DNA from: Alphaproteobacteria bacterium
Lineage (GTDB): Bacteria; Pseudomonadota; Alphaproteobacteria; SP197
DNA: 64,000 bases
Reading direction: 5' to 3'
NCBI GenBank assembly: GCA_965200745.1
Contig: CBDAUZ010000002.1
Span: forward strand, 199,165 to 263,164
Shown one piece after another: positions 4,343-47,350 of the stretch. The notes beneath the pieces were generated by a model, which worked only from the letters and a program-made list of their open reading frames with translations, had not been told where the DNA came from and ran no database searches. The translations under genes were made by a program, and so were the position numbers. Every line of letters starts with the position of its first letter. Position 1 is the first letter of the stretch.

Positions 4343-5794
4343 TTATCCCCGCGCTGTTTCACGATCAATTTCTTCCATTTTGGTATCGCGAAAGGCGTGG
4401 TACGGGAATGCATCTCCGTAGTCATGCGTATCGAGTCCGGCGAGTTCGACTTCGCGTGGAACACGCAACCAACCAAGTCCGTTGAGGATTTTCGCCAACA
4501 CATAGCAGGGAATGAATCCGAGACCCCAGAACATGATCACAGCACCCAGGAAGTTTCCGAGTGGATTGATGACCGCAACGCCATCAGCGTTGGTCCCGAA
4601 CCAGCCCGCAGCTTCACCGGCGACATTTGACGGGTAACCCCACAGCATGAACCCGGCAATGACCGTGCCGACGAATCCCGCGTAACCATGGACCGCCACA
4701 GCGCCCACTGCATCGTCGATCTTGAACTTGCGCTCGACCCAGTAGTGGAGTTTGTACGCAATCCAGACACCGATCATTGCAATGATCATGGACTCGATCG
4801 GGTGATAGAGATCGTTACCCGCCGACGCCGTAATGACACCGGCAAGTCCTCCCGAGTAACTCCAGAACGGTTGTCCGCGCGAGACGATATAACCCGCCAG
4901 GAGACCGCCTGACAGCGACATCAGGAAGTTGAAGGTGATCGCAGATAACGAGGTCGGCGTGAGATAAATGGTCGTTGCCGTGAAGAATGGTTCGCCTTCT
5001 ACACCGAGAACACCGGAAGTGTAGTCGATGATCGGGACATTGCACGCCGCGTAGAAGCCCCAGAAACCCGTGTAGATCAGGAACAGTCCGACTGTAACAA
5101 ACCACGGGTTGTTTTGCGGGATATCGCGCGGAGTGCCGTCCTTGGCAAACTTGCCCAGTCGCGGACCGAGAACAACAAGGACACCCAACGCCGAACCACC
5201 GGCGATGCCATGAACAACCGAGGATGCGTATGCATCATGGTAACCCATGAGCTGGACCATCCAGCCGTTCCAGCTCCAGCCCCATGCCGCATCAATGATC
5301 CATGTAACAGATCCAACCAGAACGACGATGATGAGGAAAGCCTGGGTCTTGATGCGCTCAATGACCGCACCAGAGACAATCGAAGCAGTTGTCCAGGAAA
5401 ACAGCAGGAACGCTGCCCAGAACACGCCGTTGATTCGTGCCCAGAACATGGTGTCAGCGGCTGTAAGGCTTCCATCCTGTACGGTGACCGAGCCACCCAT
5501 GTGTGTGCCCATGAGCTCGGACCAGGGTACAGCGAACGGTGCATCGACCAACCCGCCCATGAACGGGAAATAGGGGAACGCAAAGTAGATCCACCAGCCA
5601 AAGTAGAAAAACGTTACCGTTACGAGCGGTATCAGCATCGTGTTTTTCATCAATGTATGCTGAATGTTCTGGCGACGAGACGCGCCTACCTCGTAGACGC
5701 AGAAACCTACGTGGATCAGAAACATGATGACCACGGTGACCCAGTAGTAAAATTCCGTAAATATGACGGTCAGAGAGCCAAACTCGTCAGACAT
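4343..5794 (-). CDS. amt: Ammonium transporter (Amt/MEP family).
   Basis: About 11 predicted TM helices; Amt signature regions (YEVGASRRQN..., AVHGYAGFVGT, GLDTHD...). Start chosen at MSDEFGSL (ATG 5794, AAGGAA SD) rather than the ORF-track ATG at 5830. Confidence 0.9.
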   Translation of the reverse strand: MSDEFGSLTVIFTEFYYWVTVVIMFLIHVGFCVYEVGASRRQNIQHTLMKNTMLIPLVTVTFFYFGWWIYFAFPYFPFMGGLVDAPFAVPWSELMGTHMGGSVTVQDGSLTAADTMFWARINGVFWAAFLLFSWTTASIVSGAVIERIKTQAFLIIVVLVGSVTWIIDAAWGWSWNGWMVQLMGYHDAYASSVVHGIAGGSALGVLVVLGPRLGKFAKDGTPRDIPQNNPWFVTVGLFLIYTGFWGFYAACNVPIIDYTSGVLGVEGEPFFTATTIYLTPTSLSAITFNFLMSLSGGLLAGYIVSRGQPFWSYSGGLAGVITASAGNDLYHPIESMIIAMIGVWIAYKLHYWVERKFKIDDAVGAVAVHGYAGFVGTVIAGFMLWGYPSNVAGEAAGWFGTNADGVAVINPLGNFLGAVIMFWGLGFIPCYVLAKILNGLGWLRVPREVELAGLDTHDYGDAFPYHAFRDTKMEEIDRETARG

Positions 5795-5884
5795 CGTCCT
5801 GGTTCCTTCCGTATTTTGAAGACGCCGCAACCACCGCCAATAGCGGTCGCCCCGACATGCACATCAGTTTACGATTCAATCTCA

Positions 5885-5903
5885 ATGCTGCAAGGGCACC
5901 GGT
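5885..5903 (-). promoter_or_regulatory. Candidate sigma-54 (-24/-12) promoter upstream of amt.
   Basis: Minus-strand sequence CCGGTGCCCTTGCAGCATT has GG and GC elements at sigma-54 spacing (GG-N10-GC), about 90-110 nt upstream of the amt start. NtrC/sigma-54 control of amt genes is common. Confidence 0.25.
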
Positions 5904-5950
5904 TACGGTGTCTTGCCGGCACAATCCAATATCGGCAGGGTCCCGCGTTC

Positions 5951-6544
5951 ATGATCGAGTCGTCAGAAATGAATCACAACCATGGCGAACAATTGCGCGA
6001 ACGATTCATGGCATGGCAATGTCTTATTCGTCAGTATGCCATGCGACGCGCTGACGGGCGTCCGACAGAAGGCATGGAACCCCTTGCGGTACTTCCCGGA
6101 ATGGTGGAACTCGGACACATTCGCACGGTCATCGTGCAGAAGACACCCGAAGACTCTATCGCATTGTTCCAGCAGATTGTCCGCGGTTCACTTGACCCGC
6201 GTGAGCGACAGGAAAAGGCGCTCAGACATCTTGCGGCGTTCTATTATCAGCAACCGAAACGATTTGAACCGCGGCTGTTTGCACAGTTTCGTGCGTCTTC
6301 AACGGGCGCAGCACATCTACTTGAAGCCGGAACGTGCACGCTCCGCTTCAGTCAGGCCACACAAGAATTTGTTCTGTTCTGCGATGTCGAGAAGCTTGCC
6401 GGTAACGATCAGTTTGCGACAGCACTGACCTGGCACAATGCCTTGTTCAGCGGCGCATTGATGCCCGACTCGATACGACTTGCATTCGCGCCACAGTGGA
6501 GTCGATGCACGGCTGTACCACCGGTTCCGACCAGCACTGAATAA
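5951..6544 (+). CDS. Hypothetical protein (about 197 aa).
   Basis: This is the 3' part of the long + ORF 5114..6544 that does not overlap amt. It starts at ATG 5951 (MIESSEMNHNHGEQLRERF...). Coding-like composition, but no recognisable motif. Confidence 0.45.
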   Translation: MIESSEMNHNHGEQLRERFMAWQCLIRQYAMRRADGRPTEGMEPLAVLPGMVELGHIRTVIVQKTPEDSIALFQQIVRGSLDPRERQEKALRHLAAFYYQQPKRFEPRLFAQFRASSTGAAHLLEAGTCTLRFSQATQEFVLFCDVEKLAGNDQFATALTWHNALFSGALMPDSIRLAFAPQWSRCTAVPPVPTSTE

Positions 6545-6626
6545 TCAGCATCCCCGGTTCAAGAGAGCTGTCACACAGGATTTCCCGGGAATGCATCCAC
6601 GATTTTCTGTGTCACGATTTTGTTCA

Positions 6627-7937
6627 TCACAGGATGAACCGGCTCAGATCCACATTCTTGACAAGCTCGCCGACCCGCTCCTCCACGAATGGAGAGCTGA
6701 TAAGGATTTCGTCGCCCGGCCGATCCGGCGCGGTAAAGCTGATTTCGTCGAGAAGCTTTTCCATCACCGTGTGCAGGCGACGGGCGCCAATATTCTCGAC
6801 ATTCTCGTTGATGCGGGTTGCCAGGTCCGCAAGGGTATCGATCGCATCGTCCGTGAACTCAAGAAGCACACGCTCCGTTTTCAGAAGTTCCTTGTACTGC
6901 AGAAGGAGATTGTTGACCGGCTCTGTCAGGATGCGACGGAAATCGTCACGGGTGAGTGCATTGAGTTCGACCCTGTTTGGCAACCGGCCCTGGAGTTCCG
7001 GCAGCAGATCCGCAGGTTTTGCCAGATGGAACGCACCCGAACAGATAAAGAGGATATGGTCGGTCTTGACCGGGCCATGTTTTGTCGAGACCGTCGTGCC
7101 CTCGATGAGTGGAAGAAGGTCGCGTTGAACGCCTTCGCGTGACACATCGCCAACCATTCTGTCGTTGCGTCCGGCAATCTTGTCTATTTCGTCGATGAAG
7201 ACAATGCCGTCCTGTTCCGTGGCGTCCACGGCGCTGCGAACTACGACATCCTCGTCGAGCAATTTGTCCGATTCTTCGGCCATAAGCAGGTCGTAGCTGT
7301 CGCCGACTTTCAGCTTGCGCTTCTTGGTATTTTCGCCGAACGCCTTTCCGAAAACATCGCCGAGATTGACCATGCCCATCTGGGCACCAGGCATGCCGGG
7401 CACCTCGAAGGTCGGCATGTTCGGCGAGTTTGTGTCCTGCACGTCCAGTGTCACTTCGTGATCGTCGAGCTTCTCCTGACGCAGCAGGGTTCTGTACTTG
7501 TTGCGTGTTTCGGTACTCGCGTTCTTTCCTGCAAGCGCTTCGATCACACGATTCTCGGCGGCGAGGCGCGCCTGTGCTTCAACTTCCTTGCGCTTTTCCT
7601 CTCGCTTCTGCGTGATCGCGATCTCGACGAGGTCACGGATGATTTGCTCGACATCCCGACCGACGTAGCCGACTTCGGTGTACTTGGTTGCCTCGACCTT
7701 GAGAAATGGTGCGTTGGCCAGTTTCGCAAGCCGTCGGGCTATCTCCGTCTTGCCAACACCGGTTGGCCCGATCATCAGTATGTTCTTGGGAAGAACCTCA
7801 TCCCGCAACATGTCGTCGAGCTGCTGACGACGCCACCTGTTCCGAAGCGCAATTGCAACCGCGCGTTTGGCCGCGTTCTGGCCGATGATGAATCTGTCAA
7901 GTTCCGAGACTATCTCCCGGGGTGAGAATGAGCTCAT
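6627..7937 (-). CDS. hslU: ATP-dependent protease ATPase subunit HslU.
   Basis: 436 aa. [22 protein letters not shown], Walker [16 protein letters not shown], conserved C-terminus ...VDLSRFIL. Confidence 0.95.
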
Positions 7938-8055
7938 GTGTTCCTCAGAGAGCGACGGAAAGAAACGATCCTTACAAGACGTCGTTGTCGTCTGGAGCGA
8001 TCGATTGCAATCCGGCAGGTGCGGTTTTCATTCTAGTCTGACGCCACGCGTCGTT

Positions 8056-8610
8056 CTACCTTGTATCAAGAGACTCCACGGTAACCGCGGTATTTGTGTA
8101 CACGCAGATTTCAGCAGCAATGGCCAGGCTCTTGCGCGCGACATCTTCCGCCGAAATACCGTCAGTCGATAACAGTGCCTTTGCCGCAGCAAGCGCGAAG
8201 TTTCCACCCGATCCGATTCCGATCAAGCCGTCTTCCGGTTCCAGCACATCGCCAGTTCCGCTGATGACGAGCGAAACATTGGCATCCGCGACAGCCATGA
8301 GCGCTTCAAGTCGGCGAAGGTAACGGTCGGTCCTCCAGTCCTTCGCCAGTTCCACACACGCCCGCGCGAGTTGGCCCGGATGACGCTCAAGTTTGGCCTC
8401 CAGTCGCTCGAAGAGTGTGAAGGCATCCGCTGTTGCTCCTGCGAATCCCACCAGAATCGAACCCGATCCCAGTCGGCGCACCTTGACGGCATTTGACTTG
8501 ATCACTGACTGACCCATGGTCACCTGGCCATCACCGGCAATGACAACCTTCCCGTCCTTGCGGACGGAAAGAATGGTCGTGCCGTGCCATACGGACTCCT
8601 TCGTGTGCAT
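8056..8610 (-). CDS. hslV: ATP-dependent protease subunit HslV, with an alphaproteobacterial-type N-terminal propeptide.
   Basis: [23 protein letters not shown]hr-protease N-terminus preceded by [18 protein letters not shown] present. Lies downstream of hslU on the same strand. Confidence 0.95.
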
Positions 8611-9349
8611 TTACTGCAATCTCCTACCAACCGGTATTCAGAACAGGATCATCAATTCGATCTGTCTCGCAAAGCCGCGATCATTCGAAAAAATGAACGA
8701 TATTGTTCAAGCGAAACAACGGCAGACACACAAGCGATACCGCGATCTTGCGCTGCATGAAGATCGGGCGATCAGTCTGTCCACCGCTGCAAACTGACCT
8801 TGTCATGCGATCCCGGCAGATTCGTATATTGCGTTCTACCGGACATTCACAGGTCATGAGAACCAGAAACCGCGCCTTTGGAACCCGCTGTCTCGTTTCG
8901 ATTCCGGGACCGGTTTCACCCCTTTACTGTATCGTCGTTCAGTCATGTTTCCAGACTCAGAATATGTAGTTGATCGGCAACAATCTGCAATACCTGACGG
9001 TTTCGGCCATGAGAAATCGACGAACACGAACAGATTGGTGCGTCATTTTCGTTTGTGGGATCGCCGTAGAAGGCCCGTCGGCCAGGTTGACATGATCCGC
9101 ACACACCGCCCTGGTACCGCGGAACCCTGTCGACAGCGACGAGAAGGCAGAGATAGACGGTGAGACCAACGCCTAATTGATCGCCGTACGCGATGGCAAC
9201 CAGGCACGGGACCGCCGTGAACTGACCGTTGCACAACGGTCACATAATCGGGCGATTTACGGGCAAAGCCATATCAACGCTGCCTCCATCAACACGAGGC
9301 CTTCAGGAAACCGGTTCAACGACGGTACGCGTGGTATTGCGCCTCGGAT

Positions 9350-9652
9350 GTGATGACAAGCGCGCAGGAGGTGGAATTTCATCGGGACTTTCCGGACCAG
9401 CACGGAGTAACACACACCGCGCTCGATCCGGAAACCACGTCGGGTTACCCGGCCGGACAGCGCCGCGCTGCAGATTTTTGGAGAGAGGGGTATCGTGGAC
9501 TGGTCTACCCGTCCGTACGCCATCCCGGTGGCCGGTGTTTTGTCGCCTTCGACCCCGGTATCATCCAGAATGTTCGTCGGCGAGCAAGTTGGACGCTCGT
9601 CTGGCATGGTTCGCCAGAATTCACAATCGAGGCGTTGAGTCACCTTTCATGA
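9350..9652 (+). pseudogene. Fragment (C-terminal half only) of a RES-domain toxin (RES-Xre type TA family); apparently truncated or frameshifted.
   Basis: ...YPAGQRRAADFWREGYRGLVYPSVRHPGGRCFVAFDPGII matches the conserved C-terminal core of RES-domain proteins (G-x-G-L-x-Y/VPSA-x-PGG-x-N-x-V-x-F). The same frame is closed by a stop at 9245, so the N-terminal R-E-S motif region is missing. Confidence 0.35.
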
Positions 9653-10218
9653 TCTTGATGCGGTACTTTTATATATCGTCATAAGATAATGAAAATGCGA
9701 TATGTTTTCCTCCATGAATATCTTCACCTTCCTCTACATCATCAGCCGCGAGTCTTGCGGCGGTTTCGACTGGGCGTCTGTGGAAATCTCCTGAACGAAG
9801 TCGAAGACGCTCGCAGGTGGTCGGGCTTCCTCATCATCGTAACAGCGAAAGAGAAGGTTCAATTCGTCCGTGCTGGGCAGAGCTTCGGCCCGGTCTCCTT
9901 GCTGCGCTCGGATGGTTTCCCCGGCTCGTACAAATCGCCTATATGAAGATCGATAAGATTGCCAAAGGTCAGGAGACCAGCATGTTGATCAGTGCCGGTC
10001 CCTGATCCACAGGCGTTTCCGCCTGACGTACACAGCGATGGGAGTCGTCGTGGCGAAAAATTGTTTCGCTCGAACAGCGGCCAATTCATCGGGTCTCGAC
10101 TCGGTGGGTACCTGAAGAAAGCTCAGACGTCGGTCACCATATTCATGTGTGTACAAAGAGACGCCGTTGAGGGGCAGGTTCAAGGATTTCGGGCGTAGCA
10201 GTCGTCGTCGCCAACAGT

Positions 10219-11274
10219 TTGAAAACGCACACAATGAAAATCAGTCATGACGCCAGATTGTCCACAGCCCCGATGATGGACTGCACAGATACCTATGACC
10301 GGTCGTTTCTGCGCTGCGTCACACGACACACCTTGCTCTATTCAGAGATGATCGTTGCAGACGCAATCCTCCACGGTCCACGGAAACGATTGCTTGAAAT
10401 CGACGAAACGGAACATCCGGTTGCATTGCAGGTCGGCGGTTCGGAACCACACAAACTCGCCGATGTATCGCGTATTGCAGAAGACGCCGGTTTTGATGAA
10501 ATCAATCTCAACGTCGGCTGTCCAAGTTCCAGGGTCGGCGCCGGTCGATTTGGCGTATGTCTGATGGCCTGGCCCGACATTGTCGCGCGTTGCGTCGAGG
10601 CCATGCAGCACTCGGCGACCATTCCCGTCACCGTGAAGTGTCGTATCGGAATTGACGACATGGATGAAAACGAAACCTTGCCGGCGTTCGTGGAGGAGGT
10701 TGCCAATGCGGGGTGCAGAACATTTGTCGTCCATGCACGCAAGGCATGGTTGCACGGTCTGTCACCGAAACAGAACCGTGAAATACCGCCCTTGCGTTAC
10801 GGTGTTGTCTACGAAACAAAACGCCGTTTTCCGCATCTCGCGATCGTCATCAACGGCGGAATCCGGAACCTGGACGAAGCGAGAGGACACCTCGCTCATG
10901 TCGATGGTGCGATGATTGGCCGGGCCGCGTATCACACACCATACACGCTTGCCGACGCCGACAGGGTCATGTTCGGTGCCGAAACACCCCGGCCCAAACG
11001 CAAGGACATTGTTGAAGCCTGGTATCCGTATCTCGAACGAAAACTGGCCGCAGGCGTGCCGCTGAAGCGCATGACACGTCACATCCTGGGGCTCTACCAC
11101 GGAGAGCCCGGCGCCCGGAGCTGGCGGAGAACGCTTGTGGAAGAGGCCGCGAAATCCGGTGCAGGAATCGAGGTTATCGAAAACGCATTGCGTTTTGTCG
11201 AACAATCAGACGCTTGTGGATCACGATCAATGTCACACAGACACGAGACTCATGTCGATACAAGCGACGAATAG
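10219..11274 (+). CDS. dusA: tRNA-dihydrouridine(20/20a) synthase DusA.
   Basis: 351 aa. RLSTAPMMDCTDTYDRSFLRCVTRHTLLYSEMIV... and a TIM-barrel flavoenzyme core. Start is ambiguous: ATG 10219 or ATG 10234, and neither has a strong SD. Confidence 0.9.
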   Translation: MKTHTMKISHDARLSTAPMMDCTDTYDRSFLRCVTRHTLLYSEMIVADAILHGPRKRLLEIDETEHPVALQVGGSEPHKLADVSRIAEDAGFDEINLNVGCPSSRVGAGRFGVCLMAWPDIVARCVEAMQHSATIPVTVKCRIGIDDMDENETLPAFVEEVANAGCRTFVVHARKAWLHGLSPKQNREIPPLRYGVVYETKRRFPHLAIVINGGIRNLDEARGHLAHVDGAMIGRAAYHTPYTLADADRVMFGAETPRPKRKDIVEAWYPYLERKLAAGVPLKRMTRHILGLYHGEPGARSWRRTLVEEAAKSGAGIEVIENALRFVEQSDACGSRSMSHRHETHVDTSDE

Positions 11275-11352
11275 CCGGTGAAAAACGAGCGCGTGTGCCG
11301 CAAGTCTCTCGAATCTCCTGACATGTGCCTGTTTGGCTAAAGCCGCAATGCA

Positions 11353-11742
11353 TCACTCCGGTGCATGGCAACAGGCCTGAATCTTGTTGCCATCGGGATC
11401 ACGGGCGTATGCGCCGTAGTAATGTTCGTGATAGTGGGAACGCAGTCCGGGTCCACCCTCATCCGTACCGCCAGCTTCGATACAGGCCGCATGAAACCTG
11501 TCAACGGCATCGCGTGTCTGTGCCAGAAAGGCGACGTGTGTACCGTTTCCGGCTGTCGCGGGCGCGCGATTATAGGGCGTGACAACAAAGAGTTGTGCCG
11601 GCTGCCCTTGCGGCGAAAACCCGGCGAGCGGGATACGCGGTTCGTTTAGCGTGCAGCTGATTCCCAGCGGCTCCAGGACCCTGGTGTAGAACTTTACAGA
11701 TTTGTCGAAAGCGTTCGTGCCGAGCGTCATGTGACTGAACAT
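11353..11742 (-). CDS. VOC (glyoxalase/bleomycin-resistance/dioxygenase) family protein.
   Basis: 129 aa. Glyoxalase-like fold hallmarks (HVAF..., ...YGAYARDPDGNKIQ). GGGGAGA SD. Sits 18 nt downstream of the kinase-aminotransferase fusion gene on the same strand. Confidence 0.8.
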   Translation of the reverse strand: MFSHMTLGTNAFDKSVKFYTRVLEPLGISCTLNEPRIPLAGFSPQGQPAQLFVVTPYNRAPATAGNGTHVAFLAQTRDAVDRFHAACIEAGGTDEGGPGLRSHYHEHYYGAYARDPDGNKIQACCHAPE

Positions 11743-11759
11743 CGTGGCAATCTCCCCAC

Positions 11760-14144
11760 TCAGAGTTCCGAAACCGCCTGGTTCATTATGGCAACAAACA
11801 TGTCCGCATTTGCCTTGTCGAACACCAGTGGCGGCCGAATTTTGAAAACATTGCCATGCGGTCCCTCACGGCCAACAAGTACGCCAAGTTCCCGCATGCG
11901 ATTCTGCACCCTGTGCGTAATCTCCGGCGCCGGGGTCCTCGCACGCCGGTCGTGTACGAATTCGACGCCGGCGATCAGGCCGCACCCCCTGACATCGCCG
12001 ATGCAATCGTGCTGGTCCAGGAGCTTTTTCATCTCGTTTTTCAGATAGTCGCCCGTTTCCCGTGCATTCGACTGCAGTTCCTCGCGCTCGATGACATCGA
12101 GAACCGCGAGGCCTGCGGCACAGGCAACAGGATTGCCCCCGAATGTACTGAACAGGCCGTCCGTGGCCTCGTTGAATTCCGACAGGATCTCGCTTCGGGT
12201 CACGACAACACCGAGTGGATAACCACCGCCAACCGGTTTTCCCAATGTCACAAAGTCAGGTGTGACACCGTAGTACTCAAATCCCCACATGGTGCGCCCC
12301 GGACGGGCGAATCCGAATTGAACCTCGTCAGCCACATTCATTCCGCCGGCACGTTTGACCCGTGCAAAAACTTCTCCGAGATAGGTTGGCGGTACATCAG
12401 GGATCCCGTTCGAACAGAACGACGTATCGATCATGAAGAGCGCCGTTCCCATGCCCGTCGATTCCAGTTCGGCAATTGCCTGGTCCGCAAAGGATGCGTA
12501 CTTGCCCGCCAGATCCGGCTCATCTTCACGGTAGGGACCGCGATACGGATCCGGCGCAACAAGGGCACGTACATGTGGTGCCAGATTGGAGGAGTGTTCG
12601 GGCGAAAGATGTGCGATGGCATCCGTGATGCCGTGATATGCGTCCTTGACAATGAGGCAACCACGATTGCCCGTCAGCACATTGGCCATCCTGAAGGCCA
12701 TGTCATTCGCCTCGCTGCCGGAATTGACAAAAACACAGCGGTCGAGTTCTGCCGGCATGGTGGCGAGAAGCCTCTCCGCATAGGCAGCAAGGTTGTCGTA
12801 GAGGTAGCGCGTGTTTGTACCGAGCGCCGCAGTCTGGCGTGCTATCGCATTGACTACGTGCGGGTGGCAATGGCCGACACTGGGAACGTTGTTGTAGGCG
12901 TCCAGAAACGCCCGGCCATTGGCATCGTAGAGCCACGCTCCCCTGCCCCGTTCCACGTGTATCGGTTTCTCATAGAACAGGCTGAGGTGCTTGCCGACAA
13001 CACGGTGACGTCGTCCGAGTACATGTTCGGTGTCATCTGCTTCGGGTGTCGTGGTCGTACCGATCCTGCAGCGGGTCGGCATGCGCAGCACTTCGCGAAA
13101 CCGCTGTGTTGCCCGTTCAGGGCCGATTGATTCGAGTCGCTCCAGATCTTTGGTGATCTGTTCGAGATACAGTTCGTCGTGGGACCTTCCCGCGCGGCCC
13201 ACATGGAATCTCGACAATGTGATCACACCGGAAATCGCCAGGCGGGCAACAATGCAATCGTAGAGGACGTCGACCTCTTCCTCCTCGAGCGGAATCACCG
13301 AGTCGAATCCGACCGCAACATTTTCAAACATGCTCAGCGGATCATCAAACTCGTGGCCGTAATCGTCGCAAGCCAGTGCGAGTTCAACGGCGAGCGGACC
13401 ATGGATCATGTCGCCAAAGTCGATAATGCTGACCGGAGTCTCCGGATCGTTTTCGTCGACCAGAACATTCGAGCTGTTGGCGTCATTGTGAATGACCTGG
13501 GACCGCATGGTTTCAAGACGCGGCAAGGTTCCTTCAATGAACCGGTCCAGCACGGTCTCGATGCATTGGCGCAATGTGCGGTTCTCGAACAGACCGGTAT
13601 GAACACGCAGCGTCGGCGCCTGACGAATATCCCAGACAAGGGTATGCATGGACGATGGGTGGACAAATCCGCGCAGAGCACGATCCGTTCGCGCAACCAG
13701 CGCCCCCACACCTCTCAGTGTACGCCTCGTGTATTCAGTTTCGCCGACCGGTGTACCAGGCAACCACGAAAGGACCCTGACAATACTTGTGCGACCATCG
13801 CGAAGGGTCACGTTGCGTGACAATTCACCCGAGGTTGTCGGGACCACTTCAGGTATCTGCAGCGCACCATCTGCCTTGGCGATATGCAGCAATGCCCGCG
13901 TCTGGAAGTCGATGACGCCGGGGTCTTCTTCGGGATGGAAGTACTTCAGGATCCAGCGCCCGTTCTCACCCGTGATAGCGAAGTTGGTATCCCTGTCGGA
14001 CTTGCAGGGGGTAAATTCACCCTCCAGTCCAAAAATCCTGCTTGCGAGTTGCATCGCCTCTGCAACACTCACCTCAGGCCGGTTCGAGACGAGATACTTG
14101 ATGTTCTCGGCAAATTCACTCAATGCAACTCTCCCCCGCAGCAA
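11760..14144 (-). CDS. Bifunctional fusion. N-terminal aminoglycoside-phosphotransferase-fold kinase (hydroxylysine/ethanolamine-kinase-like, AGPHD1-like) joined to a C-terminal class-III aminotransferase-fold domain (AGXT2L/ethanolamine-phosphate phospho-lyase-like).
   Basis: 794 aa. N-terminal half has APH/ChoK motifs (VIHNDANSSNVLVD, IIDFGD). C-terminal half has class-III AT motifs (DEVQFGFARPG, TLGKPVGGG, LIGDVRGCGL). First codon is TTG. Confidence 0.85.
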   Translation of the reverse strand: MLRGRVALSEFAENIKYLVSNRPEVSVAEAMQLASRIFGLEGEFTPCKSDRDTNFAITGENGRWILKYFHPEEDPGVIDFQTRALLHIAKADGALQIPEVVPTTSGELSRNVTLRDGRTSIVRVLSWLPGTPVGETEYTRRTLRGVGALVARTDRALRGFVHPSSMHTLVWDIRQAPTLRVHTGLFENRTLRQCIETVLDRFIEGTLPRLETMRSQVIHNDANSSNVLVDENDPETPVSIIDFGDMIHGPLAVELALACDDYGHEFDDPLSMFENVAVGFDSVIPLEEEEVDVLYDCIVARLAISGVITLSRFHVGRAGRSHDELYLEQITKDLERLESIGPERATQRFREVLRMPTRCRIGTTTTPEADDTEHVLGRRHRVVGKHLSLFYEKPIHVERGRGAWLYDANGRAFLDAYNNVPSVGHCHPHVVNAIARQTAALGTNTRYLYDNLAAYAERLLATMPAELDRCVFVNSGSEANDMAFRMANVLTGNRGCLIVKDAYHGITDAIAHLSPEHSSNLAPHVRALVAPDPYRGPYREDEPDLAGKYASFADQAIAELESTGMGTALFMIDTSFCSNGIPDVPPTYLGEVFARVKRAGGMNVADEVQFGFARPGRTMWGFEYYGVTPDFVTLGKPVGGGYPLGVVVTRSEILSEFNEATDGLFSTFGGNPVACAAGLAVLDVIEREELQSNARETGDYLKNEMKKLLDQHDCIGDVRGCGLIAGVEFVHDRRARTPAPEITHRVQNRMRELGVLVGREGPHGNVFKIRPPLVFDKANADMFVAIMNQAVSEL

Positions 14145-14492
14145 TTCCGGCTGTCGTCAACACACGAACATACATGCTTGTCCGGCTCCTTGCGTAAACT
14201 ATCGAAATGATAGCAGACGCAAGAGACCATCCCGGCGTTTGACAGGATTCAAACGGGTGTCATCGAACGCGCCGAATTGCGAAACAAATCACGGTGATCG
14301 ACGTACGGCCGCGCCAACGCTTGTCAACGTCTGAACGCACGGTACAACAACAACTCTTGTATCGGTTGAACTGCTGGAGTTGCCGACATGTCGCGACGGG
14401 AACGGTCTGCTGCGGGACGGCGACGCGCCGATGCGTCCAGAAATCGCAGGCCACAATTGCCATGGGCGACCTTTCGCAATCCCTATCCGCCG

Positions 14493-15926
14493 ATGGAGAT
14501 TGCGAGTGCCGACGAGATAGAGAGCATTCATGACGCGTCGTTGACCGTACTCGAGGAGGTCGGCGTCAACATTCTGCTCGATGAGGCGCGCGACATTCTC
14601 CAGGCCGCCGGTGTTCCGACGACCAGGGGCGAAACCCGCGTTCATATGGACCGCGGATTCATCGAAAGCATGATGAAGGAGACACCTGATATCTGGACAC
14701 TCCACGCCCGAAATCCTGAACGGAACCGGGTATTCGGAGACAACCATGTCAATTTCTTTCCGGTCGCCGGCAATCCGAACGTCGCCGACCTTGAAGGTGG
14801 ACGCCGTTCCGGAACCCTCAAGGACTACCAGGACCTGCTGCGACTGGCTCAGGTCGTCAATGCGGTTCATGGATGCACGCCGATGCTTGAGCCGCTCGAT
14901 GTGCACCCGAACACGCGCTATCTCGATATCGTTGGCGAACAGCTGTTGCTTTCCGACAAGATAGCCTTCGGCTACGCAATCGGGCGACGCAAGATCCTCG
15001 ACGCAATTGAAATGGTGCGAATCGCCAGGGGAATTTCACATGAGGAACTGCAGACGCAGCCCAGCATCTGGACTGTTGTGAACTGCAACTCGCCGCTTCA
15101 GCTCGACATTCCGATGTTGCTTGGCATGATCGAGATGTCGCGGCGAAACCAGGTTATCGTCGTCACGCCATTCACCCTTGCCGGCGCCATGGCACCCGTC
15201 TCGCTGTCCGGCGCCCTGATCCAGCAAAACGCGGAGGCGATCTCCGCGTTGGCCTTCTGTCAGGCTGTCAAGCCGGGGACACCGGTAGTCTACGGCGGGT
15301 TCACGAGCAATGTTGACATGCGTTCCGGCGCACCGGCATTCGGCACGCCCGAATACGTCAAGGCCGTCCTGGTCGGTGGACAACTCGCGCGATTCTACAA
15401 ACTGCCGTACCGTTCGTCAGGTGTCAGCGCCTCGAACTGGCCCGATGCCCAGGCCACATATGAAACCTCCATGTCGCTCTGGGCGACAGTGCTCAGTCAT
15501 ACGAACATGGTCATGCACAGTTTCGGCTGGATGGAGGGCGGACTGCACGCGTCATTCGAGAAGTTCATCATCGACCTCGAAATGGTGCAGACACTCATGA
15601 AGGCCATGGAGCCCATCGATTTCAGTCAACCGGAATCTGATCTCGACGCCATTCGTGAAGTCGGACCGGGCGGACACTATTTCGGAGCGGGACAAACCCT
15701 GGAACTTTATGAAACCGCATTCTATCAACCGATCCTTTCGGACTGGCGAAACTGGCAAACCTGGAAGGACGATGGTGCGGTCGATACGACCCGGCGTGCA
15801 CAACAGGTCTACCGCGATCTTCTGAGGGAATACGAAACGCCGTTCATGGAACCGGCAATCCGGGAGGAGTTGACCGCTTTCATCGATCGACGAAAGCGTG
15901 AGGGAGGCGCAACAGCGGAAGACTGA
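14493..15926 (+). CDS. MttB-superfamily (trimethylamine-methyltransferase-like) protein, non-pyrrolysine type. Likely a quaternary-amine:corrinoid methyltransferase.
   Basis: About 478 aa from MEIASADEIESIHDASLTVLEEVGV, a typical MttB-family N-terminus. TIM-barrel MttB-like core with no in-frame amber codon. The ORF track begins earlier at 14388 in the same frame. Confidence 0.85.
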   Translation: MEIASADEIESIHDASLTVLEEVGVNILLDEARDILQAAGVPTTRGETRVHMDRGFIESMMKETPDIWTLHARNPERNRVFGDNHVNFFPVAGNPNVADLEGGRRSGTLKDYQDLLRLAQVVNAVHGCTPMLEPLDVHPNTRYLDIVGEQLLLSDKIAFGYAIGRRKILDAIEMVRIARGISHEELQTQPSIWTVVNCNSPLQLDIPMLLGMIEMSRRNQVIVVTPFTLAGAMAPVSLSGALIQQNAEAISALAFCQAVKPGTPVVYGGFTSNVDMRSGAPAFGTPEYVKAVLVGGQLARFYKLPYRSSGVSASNWPDAQATYETSMSLWATVLSHTNMVMHSFGWMEGGLHASFEKFIIDLEMVQTLMKAMEPIDFSQPESDLDAIREVGPGGHYFGAGQTLELYETAFYQPILSDWRNWQTWKDDGAVDTTRRAQQVYRDLLREYETPFMEPAIREELTAFIDRRKREGGATAED

Positions 15927-19365: not shown

Positions 19366-19411
19366 CGACGTCACAGGACGCCCCCGACCGACGTCACAGG
19401 ACGCCCCCGAC
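19366..19411. repeat. Perfect tandem duplication of a 23-bp unit (CGACGTCACAGGACGCCCCCGAC x2) in the cbiD/cobA divergent intergenic region.
   Basis: Read directly from the sequence: 19366-19388 equals 19389-19411. Each unit contains the palindrome GACGTC. Confidence 0.9.
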
Positions 19412-45995: not shown

Positions 45996-46597
45996 GCGTC
46001 AAATCTTACGGCACGGCAGGCAAGATTGCCTATAGGTCCAACGATCGGACTTGTGAAAACGACCGATGCCGTGTGTTCGTTTCGTGGCCAACCGGACGGA
46101 TCGCCGCAAGGGTCACGCAACGACCCGAACGGAATTCAACCGACGATCTGCTTGTTCCCGTTATCAAACTGACAAGACCAGCCAGCCGATTGCCAGAGAA
46201 CCGGCTCATACACGATCGGGTTCGCGTCGTTGATTGGAGGAATCAATAGCTGGAAACCACCCTTGATACCCTGAGCGCTGCGCGTGCCATCTCGGCATCT
46301 GGTGTTGTGCGACAACAAGCCGAGGCTATCGCAAGCGCAATCGGCGACGTGAATTGAAAACATCCACGAGCGTCGCAACGGTCAGGGCCGACATTTCGGT
46401 CCTTGGATCGGACGTTGCTTTCCTTGAATGGGTCGGCGGGTTCAACATCGTTCTCTCACTTGCAGTCTTGATGATTGTCGCTACAGAACGCCTTCGAGAA
46501 TTCGACCAGGTCACGTGATCAGTTCTGAAACCACGAACCGTAAGCATGTCGAAACGCGCCATTCTGTTGCCTATCTGCCACCAATGGTTTAGATAAG

Positions 46598-46868
46598 GGT
46601 TGTCCGATTCATCGGACTATGGCGATAAACGCAGTACGGAATAGACGTTACGGACGCGGGGGCAGTACCCGCCGCCTCCACCAGTAATCTGAGGGGGCGA
46701 TACAGGTTCGACGTGCGTGGTAAAGGTCCTGTTTTTGCCCGGCATGATACCGCCGTTATCGGGTCAAAATCACAATCGCCAACGATAACGAGGCGTACGC
46801 TCTCGCTGCTTAAGCGGAAAGCGCGGTTCGGAGGGCACCGGGCAACAGAAGCCCTCCATGATTTCGCG
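46598..46868 (+). ncRNA. ssrA: tmRNA (ssrA), circularly permuted two-piece alphaproteobacterial type. Acceptor piece about 46598-46683, short linker, coding piece from about 46693; boundaries approximate.
   Basis: T-arm plus 3' acceptor strand ...GGACGCGGGGGCAGTACCCGCCGCCTCCACCA (ends 46683). The 5' acceptor strand GGGGGCGAUACAGGUUCGACG restarts at 46693, giving a G3:U pair with the 3' strand. Tag reading frame GCC AAC GAT AAC GAG GCG TAC GCT CTC GCT GCT TAA (46778-46813) encodes ANDNEAYALAA. Confidence 0.65.
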
Positions 46869-46885
46869 GAAGGAGCCGACAACCG

Positions 46886-47350
46886 ATGGACTACCGCGTA
46901 CTGGTCGAGGAAGCGCTTCGCGGTGTGATGATCCAGGCCCTGCGTCAGGTCGAACATCATGGACTTTCCGGAGAACATCACTTTTTCATTACATTTCGCA
47001 CCGACTATCCCGGCACCGGAATCAGCAAGGATCTCAAGGCGCGCTATCCCGAGGAAATTACAATCGTCCTGCAGAACCAGTTCTGGGGACTGAGAACTGA
47101 CTCCTCCGGTTTTTCTGTCAGTCTGTCCTTCAGTCGCAAGCCGCAGACCCTGCGTATCCCCTATGATGCCGTGACGTCATTTGTTGATCCCAGTGTCTCG
47201 TTTGCACTGCGGTTTGATTCCCATGGTGAAAGTGCGGACGAACAGATCGAAAGTCCCGGTTCAGGCAGCGTTGGTGTGGAACCTGTGGCGGTGAAAAGTC
47301 CCGATGAAACCTCCAAGGTCATATCGCTCGACGCATTTCGAAAGAAATAG
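46886..47350 (+). CDS. sspB: SspB-family ClpXP adaptor (stringent starvation protein B, alpha-type) for ssrA-tagged substrates.
   Basis: 154 aa. YRVLVEEALRGV...HHFFITFRTDYPGTGIS...YPEEITIVLQNQF...FSVSLSF...PYDAVTSFVDPSVSFALRF is the SspB fold pattern. AAGGAG SD. Directly downstream of ssrA. Confidence 0.75.
   Translation: MDYRVLVEEALRGVMIQALRQVEHHGLSGEHHFFITFRTDYPGTGISKDLKARYPEEITIVLQNQFWGLRTDSSGFSVSLSFSRKPQTLRIPYDAVTSFVDPSVSFALRFDSHGESADEQIESPGSGSVGVEPVAVKSPDETSKVISLDAFRKK

Follow-up and report, generated by a model that had tools for sequence, protein, structure and literature searches.

The 1.6-kb stretch between hslV and dusA of this alphaproteobacterium is, for the most part and with high confidence, the dead remains of a mobile genomic island once inserted at the start of dusA. 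About 1.1 kb of dead island DNA is left (positions 9054-10140 of the window, by which we mean the whole 64,000-nucleotide stretch of DNA that was analysed), containing in this order a RES-family toxin pseudogene on the plus strand, and the C-terminal end of a DUF932-like gene and fragments of an integrase gene, both on the minus strand. The order and orientation of these three remnants match those of an intact island found at dusA in another alphaproteobacterium (L017, see below), and this bears out the sequence-only reading, which had taken the region for the scar left by an element that had integrated at the 5' end of dusA. These results support the view that the feature is a decayed and immobilised dusA-specific integrative element, a class of element that is already known. 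The scar accounts for the gene-free gap in an otherwise dense genome, and the annotation can be corrected accordingly, with three pseudogenes added and the dusA start placed at 10234 (Table 1).

That the stretch holds no intact gene, as had been noted from the letters alone, was confirmed in two ways. The longest open reading frames in 8611-10233, which do not exceed 151 amino acids, are off-frame readings of the RES remnant, and gene callers left the gap empty on each of five independent metagenome contigs (L004-L008). These contigs align to the window at ~99.3% identity and without gaps, and their scar structure is identical. Since the same scar structure is present in five other assemblies, the gap is real and does not stem from an assembly error, and according to these related contigs the scar is fixed in this population. 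The GC content is 54% across the gap, as compared to 57% for the whole window. Rfam returned zero matches over 8400-10500 at E <= 1, and the sole match in a plasmid collection, searched in distant mode, was to one RES gene.

Table 1. Features of the hslV-dusA gap and of dusA, in window coordinates
Feature	Position	Strand	Basis or remark
Probable native hslV 5' region	8611..8715	-	Read from sequence
Anonymous non-coding DNA from the hslV side to the island remnant, with a rearrangement or deletion junction	8716..9053	.	
RES-family toxin pseudogene, nearly full length	9054..9652	+	Pfam, tblastn, hand alignment
AT-rich spacer between the convergent RES and DUF932-like remnants	9653..9706	.	30% GC
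C-terminal remnant of DUF932-like gene, residues 354-395 of 396 aa	9707..9832	-	tblastn
Tyrosine-integrase pseudogene, dusA-associated type, N-terminal part only	9827..10140	-	tblastn
Island-derived spacer between integrase and dusA; presumed current dusA promoter and 5' UTR	10141..10233	+	Alignment
Island-derived dusA 5' end (MKISHDARLSTAPMMDCTD), core around CCGATGATGGACTGCACAGA (10269-10288)	10234..10290	+	
Native body of dusA (tRNA-dihydrouridine synthase A), intact	10291..11274	+	ORF, homologues

An intact island carrying an integrase at dusA, which the sequence-only reading had suggested looking for in other genomes, was found on a Jannaschia helgolandensis-type contig (L017; contigs L017-L020 are of this type and encode the intact RES homologue P0123). 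The gene order on L017 is ParB-like (-), Xre (+), RES (+), a 396-aa gene (-), a 362-aa tyrosine integrase (-) and dusA (+), with DUF7146/Toprim and YAcAr genes (Pfam) farther out. In Pfam searches its antitoxin shows an Xre-like-HTH plus a toxin-binding domain, its integrase a Phage_integrase domain at residues 175-341, and the 396-aa protein a weak match to DUF932. The idea that the RES gene travelled as cargo of a dusA island is likewise upheld, with a RES remnant in the window and both Xre and RES on L017. The two hosts are distantly related, since their dusA bodies are only ~51% identical. Only one island type, that of L017-L020, offers the full arrangement in intact form, and it belongs to another order of Alphaproteobacteria.

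RES/Xre pairs are not limited to this setting, and L021-L023 show them in unrelated contexts. On L021 (7741-20690), a pair 83-84% identical to that of L017 lies beside HipBA, TIR-domain and patatin-like genes, in what looks like a defence island. In Saliniramus fredricksonii (L022, 11281-11490), a truncated DUF932-like fragment (residues 296-369) comes after an intact Xre-RES pair; this relic has the same module in part and is distant from dusA.

The toxin remnant was characterised by domain search, translated alignment and hand alignment. The open reading frame at 9350-9652 matches the Pfam RES domain (PF08808) with E = 6e-12, and the two RES frames, when joined, match it with E = 1e-18; the PF08808 score of 68 bits compares with a cut-off of 23.2. 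The joined 159-aa sequence is ~61% identical (E = 1e-61) to intact 229-aa proteins annotated as 'RES family NAD+ phosphorylase'. Using the intact homologue as a tblastn query, residues 20-101 were located at 9102-9335, in another frame than the 9350-9652 reading frame, and residues 100-229 at 9323-9637, while hand alignment of the frame traces the N-terminal part back to ~9054. The pseudogene is therefore nearly full length. The earlier description of this remnant as the C-terminal half of a RES toxin was right as to the homology, which the PF08808 model confirms, but the N-terminal part that it took to be missing is present at 9102-9335.

No intact toxin reading frame is left. The RES gene has lost its start codon and carries in-frame stops at 9093-9095 (TGA) and 9174-9176 (TAA). 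It is also short of 4 codons near 9150 and of 25 codons after 9385, and a deletion of ~7 nt near 9330 shifts the frame. Hand alignment, not a tool, is the source for the 5' limit at ~9054, the loss of the start codon, the TGA stop (9093-9095) and the size of the ~7-nt deletion. Differences at second codon positions amount to 0.17 between the remnant and its intact homologue, about threefold the 0.06 seen among intact homologues, with third codon positions equally saturated in both comparisons. The raised second-position differences would fit relaxed constraint on the RES gene after its inactivation.

The AT-rich patch that had been pointed out at 9640-9720 is real (32% GC against 57% for the window) and corresponds to the spacer that separates the convergent RES and DUF932-like remnants. 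The equivalent spacer of L017 (6691-6764) is also AT-rich, with 40% GC as compared to 65%.

Beyond this spacer, tblastn with the 396-aa protein of L017 recovered the last ~42 codons of the DUF932-like gene at 9832-9707 (60% identity, E = 4e-12), with a premature stop at 9734-9736. The integrase of L017 in turn matched three segments on the same strand (E = 2e-16 jointly, and 6e-6): residues 5-49 at 10127-9993, with an in-frame stop inside, residues 58-83 at 9975-9898, in another frame, and residues 166-190 at 9901-9827. Integrase residue 190 is followed directly, without a change of frame, by residue 354 of the DUF932-like protein, and this fusion points to a single deletion of ~1.66 kb, a size estimated relative to L017. 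The deletion took away most of the DUF932-like gene as well as integrase residues 191-362 and with them the catalytic domain; with the domain gone and a stop and frameshifts in what is left, the intact catalytic RHRH/Y set and the ability to excise are lost. The further pseudogene fragments that the sequence-only reading expected in the region thus do exist in the form of these DUF932-like and integrase pieces, but a fragment of the Xre antitoxin, which it had named as an example, does not.

The integrase remnant, on the minus strand, ends 93 bp from the ATG of dusA, on the plus strand, so that the two are divergent and the integrase lies at the dusA 5' end. The same integrase/dusA arrangement is seen in L017 and in two further loci (L026 and L027), whose integrases are 37-39% identical to that of L017 and have the 5' end of dusA immediately upstream and divergent. 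Both come from a set of 8 IMG/VR loci whose integrases share 35-40% identity with that of L017, and they are the only 2 of the set that extend past the integrase. In a phage collection the L017 integrase matched, over its full length, the integrases of phages BcepMigl, BcepIL02, mEp460 and H66 at 34-36% identity (E = 1e-51 to 1e-61), one of its phage matches being annotated as 'shufflon-specific DNA recombinase'. Farrugia et al. (2015, PMC4482086) name these four phages among the carriers of homologues of the dusA-associated integrases (DAIs), a group that they relate to Rci, the shufflon recombinase. By way of its L017 homologue, the integrase of the window can be assigned to the DAI family of Rci-related tyrosine recombinases.

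Parts of the island that might have been expected were sought and are absent. The best tblastn match of the Xre antitoxin in the region has E = 0.88, Pfam found no Xre fragment in the gap, DNA alignments with four intact Xre genes and their upstream regions scored at the shuffle mean, and a six-frame protein search gave no Xre fragment either, against the expectation that an Xre/DUF2384 piece would be found. Since Xre is 83-92% conserved among the intact modules, an Xre remnant of the same age should have shown. No cognate antitoxin gene therefore lies upstream of the toxin, and with the antitoxin wholly absent and the RES gene carrying multiple lesions, no toxin-antitoxin function is left. 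The scar shows a toxin gene that was inactivated and whose antitoxin was lost.

The second attachment site could not be detected either. DAI islands carry a semi-conserved 21-bp direct repeat at either end, attL and attR (PMC4482086). The sequence-only reading had looked to such a repeat of the dusA 5' sequence; it is absent from the whole 64-kb window. No dusA-5' 21-mer was present at >=16/21 in 8401-10200, a 27-mer from the dusA 5' sequence had no second copy with 3 mismatches, and blastn-short, tblastn with DusA N-termini and a repeat search found neither a second att nor an orphaned dusA 5' end in the window. Only the integrase-proximal junction of the pair survives. The other island genes (ParB-like, Toprim/DUF7146 and YAcAr) went undetected by tblastn in the 64 kb. 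With no Xre, att or other island gene, it follows that the distal part of the island was removed, the island-side end of this loss lying at or very near the RES start.

We compared the region upstream of dusA with that of the L017 island and with that of the nearest DusA relatives. In a local alignment the 93-bp spacer scored 33 against the L017 island spacer as compared to 7.9 ± 1.1 for shuffles (z = 21.9), with 66 identities in 97 columns, or 66 of the 86 aligned bases (~77%); taken whole, the integrase-dusA spacers of the window and of L017 are 74.5% identical. No similarity was seen (z <= 0.8) when this spacer of the window was aligned with the sequences upstream of dusA in L015 and L014, the nearest DusA relatives. 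A global alignment of the dusA upstream region gave 66% identity to both L017 and L015, with 6 and 22 gap columns, respectively; it was the local alignment of the non-coding part against shuffles that settled the affinity.

The similarity to the island extends into the coding sequence. The leader of DusA (MKISHDARLS) aligns with the island leader of L017 (MQINQHARLS; MQINQHARLSCAPMMDWTD), and the alignment puts the dusA start at the ATG at 10234 rather than at the TTG at 10219. Past the ATGATGGA core at 10273 the affinity switches, with 82/120 and 75/120 identities to the relatives versus 58/120 to L017, and sliding identity to L017 falls at ~10290. This switch after the core places the crossover at ~10267-10290, in the region coding for APMMDxTD. 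The earlier proposal of a rebuilt dusA 5' end is thereby borne out by the spacer, the homologous leader and the switch at the core. The atypical N-terminus on which that proposal drew needs amendment: RLSTAPMMDCTDTYDRSFLRC is typical for the clade, its relatives having RLSVAPMMDCTDRYDRAFLRC, but the leader and the upstream DNA are indeed island-like. Together, the spacer and the switch in affinity indicate a replacement of the dusA 5' end by the element, with a predicted promoter, and we conclude from these alignments that the dusA promoter region and the first 13-18 codons derive from the island. By analogy with the elements described by Durand et al. (2021, PMC8409611), 10141-10233 would serve as the dusA promoter; a scan of this spacer with the sigma-70 consensus gave zero sites.

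The closest DusA homologue is 70% identical to that of the window, and the nearest homologues range from 65 to 70%. A DusA scan of genome contigs returned no close relatives and three distant loci (two Lachnospiraceae and one Akkermansiaceae; 25-37% identical). Downstream of dusA, synteny is kept in L014-L016 (glyoxalase, then APH/aminotransferase), whereas upstream of dusA the content differs in every relative examined. L015 and L016 (1-7350; DusA 67% identical) have a different, mobile-looking region there, with a 740-765-aa HTH/Transposase_29 protein in both; L015 further has many small open reading frames, a NikA-like gene and SIR2_2. Upstream of dusA in L014-L016, neither a DAI integrase nor a remnant of one is present. 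In this clade the 5' flank of dusA seems to attract insertions repeatedly.

At the other end of the gap, hslV occupies 8056-8610 on the minus strand and has an AGGAG ribosome-binding site (complement of 8621-8625) and a CTTGAA hexamer ~97 nt upstream of its ATG (complement of 8706-8711). Many HslV relatives have motifs resembling CTTGAC-N16-17-CCACAT at a similar distance; the downstream hexamer of the window matches these poorly. The ~100 bp beside hslV are probably its native ribosome-binding site and promoter, the latter being marked by the CTTGAA hexamer alone. A sigma-32-type promoter was considered and is not claimed here, the window offering just this hexamer with a weak downstream element.

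The anonymous DNA next to it (8716-9053) had no match in Pfam, Rfam or the plasmid collection, and no similarity to the Xre gene or upstream region of four intact modules. A six-frame search of 8611-9075 against 5.8 billion proteins gave nothing at E <= 10, and RNA folding of 8716-9055 was not significant on either strand (z = 0.0 and -1.0). In 45 of the 47 metagenome loci of HslV relatives with enough upstream sequence, hisB is divergent from hslV, mostly across a gap of 104-284 bp; hisB is absent from the whole 64-kb window. With synteny kept downstream of dusA and different upstream of it, and with the hisB-hslV pair broken, the gap must hold a synteny breakpoint.

Elsewhere in the window, ARAGORN predicted a tmRNA gene at 46587-46904 with the tag ANDNEAYALAA, the asterisk in its output being taken to denote the permuted (two-piece) form, and a 23-bp unit (CGACGTCACAGGACGCCCCCGAC) is present in perfect tandem duplication at 19366-19411. 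In 5000-14500, SNPs relative to related metagenome strains cluster at 5500-8978 and 13000-13500, with 0 in 8979-10500, a distribution that suggests patchy recombination and not uniform divergence.

The best explanation of the scar, and in our judgement very probably the correct one, is that a dusA-specific DAI element inserted, rebuilt the dusA 5' end, and was then immobilised and eroded. The element would have entered by site-specific recombination in the APMMDxTD-coding region of dusA and exchanged the dusA promoter and first 13-18 codons for its own copy, bringing as cargo beside the integrase a DUF932-like gene and an Xre/RES toxin-antitoxin pair. A deletion of ~1.66 kb then fused integrase codon 190 to DUF932-like codon 354 at the cost of the catalytic domain, while two stops, one frameshift and two in-frame deletions accumulated in the RES toxin. 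Beyond the RES start nothing of the element is left here, neither Xre, the rest of the island and the far att nor the orphaned original 5' end of dusA; a deletion or rearrangement, with its other end upstream of hslV, removed them and also broke the hisB-hslV linkage. The order of these events, like the promoter function of 10141-10233, is inferred.

The manner of the distal loss is where an alternative deserves most attention. In place of a deletion, an inversion or translocation with a breakpoint between Xre and RES could have separated the two halves of the island, the rest of which would now lie elsewhere in the genome, perhaps beside hisB. We consider this unlikely, though with some evidence behind it: hisB, the divergent neighbour of hslV in nearly all relatives, is missing from the window, and since hisB is normally required for histidine synthesis, it has probably not been deleted but lies in some other part of the genome. 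A rearrangement also fits the left junction, which falls at the RES start or very close to it, within the uncertainty of the hand alignment, and has no trace of Xre. Against it stand the failure to detect any of the ParB-like, Toprim/DUF7146 and YAcAr genes in the 64 kb, and the fusion of the integrase and DUF932-like genes, a true internal deletion which shows that deletional decay operates at this locus.

Two other readings would do away with the dusA island altogether. If the gap were a functional non-coding region, regulatory or an RNA gene, and conserved as such, one would expect what is in fact seen in the five related contigs, namely the same structure and no SNPs in 8979-10500. These contigs are strains of one species (~99.3%) and dusA is equally free of SNPs, so that they are uninformative on constraint; moreover, Rfam gave no match, folding of 8716-9055 showed no excess of RNA structure, and 9054-10140 is occupied by pseudogene fragments with stops and frameshifts. 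This makes a conserved functional gap very unlikely. Even less credible, by a little, is an independent toxin-antitoxin cassette that came to lie beside dusA by coincidence. Intact Xre-RES pairs 84-94% identical to that of L017 do occur in three unrelated contexts, but here DUF932-like (E = 4e-12) and integrase (E = 2e-16) remnants lie between RES and dusA in the order of L017, and the spacer upstream of dusA is island-like (z = 21.9).

On the reading of a decayed dusA-specific element, the functional parts of the gap are likely confined to 10141-10290 and the ~100 bp beside hslV, and within the scar itself likely only the last ~150 bp function, as the present 5' end of dusA. These ~150 bp (10141-10290) could not be lost, since dusA has its predicted promoter, start codon and N-terminus there. 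That the scar is more than debris, in that ~150 bp have become a permanent and indispensable part of the housekeeping gene dusA and that the neighbourhood was re-wired, with hslVU next to dusA and hisB split off, is a wider claim that we think improbable. If true, an island promoter that altered dusA regulation, or expression of the 100-codon reading frame at 9350-9652 (the C-terminal half of RES), would give the relic a present-day function.

RES/Xre pairs are type II toxin-antitoxin systems, examples being MbcT/MbcA, ParT/ParS and PrsT-type pairs. The remnant of the window resembles them in its PF08808 domain and in having 229-aa proteins, annotated at NCBI as RES family NAD+ phosphorylases, as its nearest homologues. 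Every intact homologue that was inspected has an Xre-like antitoxin gene overlapping the RES start, whereas in the window the toxin is a multi-lesion pseudogene and the antitoxin is completely gone. With the island of L017-L020 the region shares the gene order and orientation from RES to dusA, the surviving pieces being 52-70% identical at the protein level. Unlike L017, it is without Xre, residues 1-353 of the DUF932-like protein, residues 84-165 and 191-362 of the integrase, and the distal ParB-like, DUF7146/Toprim and YAcAr genes.

In dusA-specific islands at large, a tyrosine integrase adjoins the 5' end of dusA in divergent orientation (Farrugia 2015, PMC4482086; Durand 2021, PMC8409611). 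The scar differs from them in size, with ~1.25 kb left as compared to the typical 30-60 kb, and in lacking the catalytic domain of the integrase, the second att repeat and an orphaned 5' end of dusA. It agrees with them in the divergent integrase adjoining dusA, in the crossover within the APM(M/L)DxTD-coding region, in toxin-antitoxin genes as cargo, and in its alphaproteobacterial host, one of the three classes reported to have these integrases. Nothing in the scar challenges the current understanding of such elements. Since the remnant is unable to excise, the island-derived 5' end of dusA is now permanent, and the locus is a clean example of a host gene that keeps an island's N-terminus and predicted promoter after the island itself has decayed and excision has become impossible.
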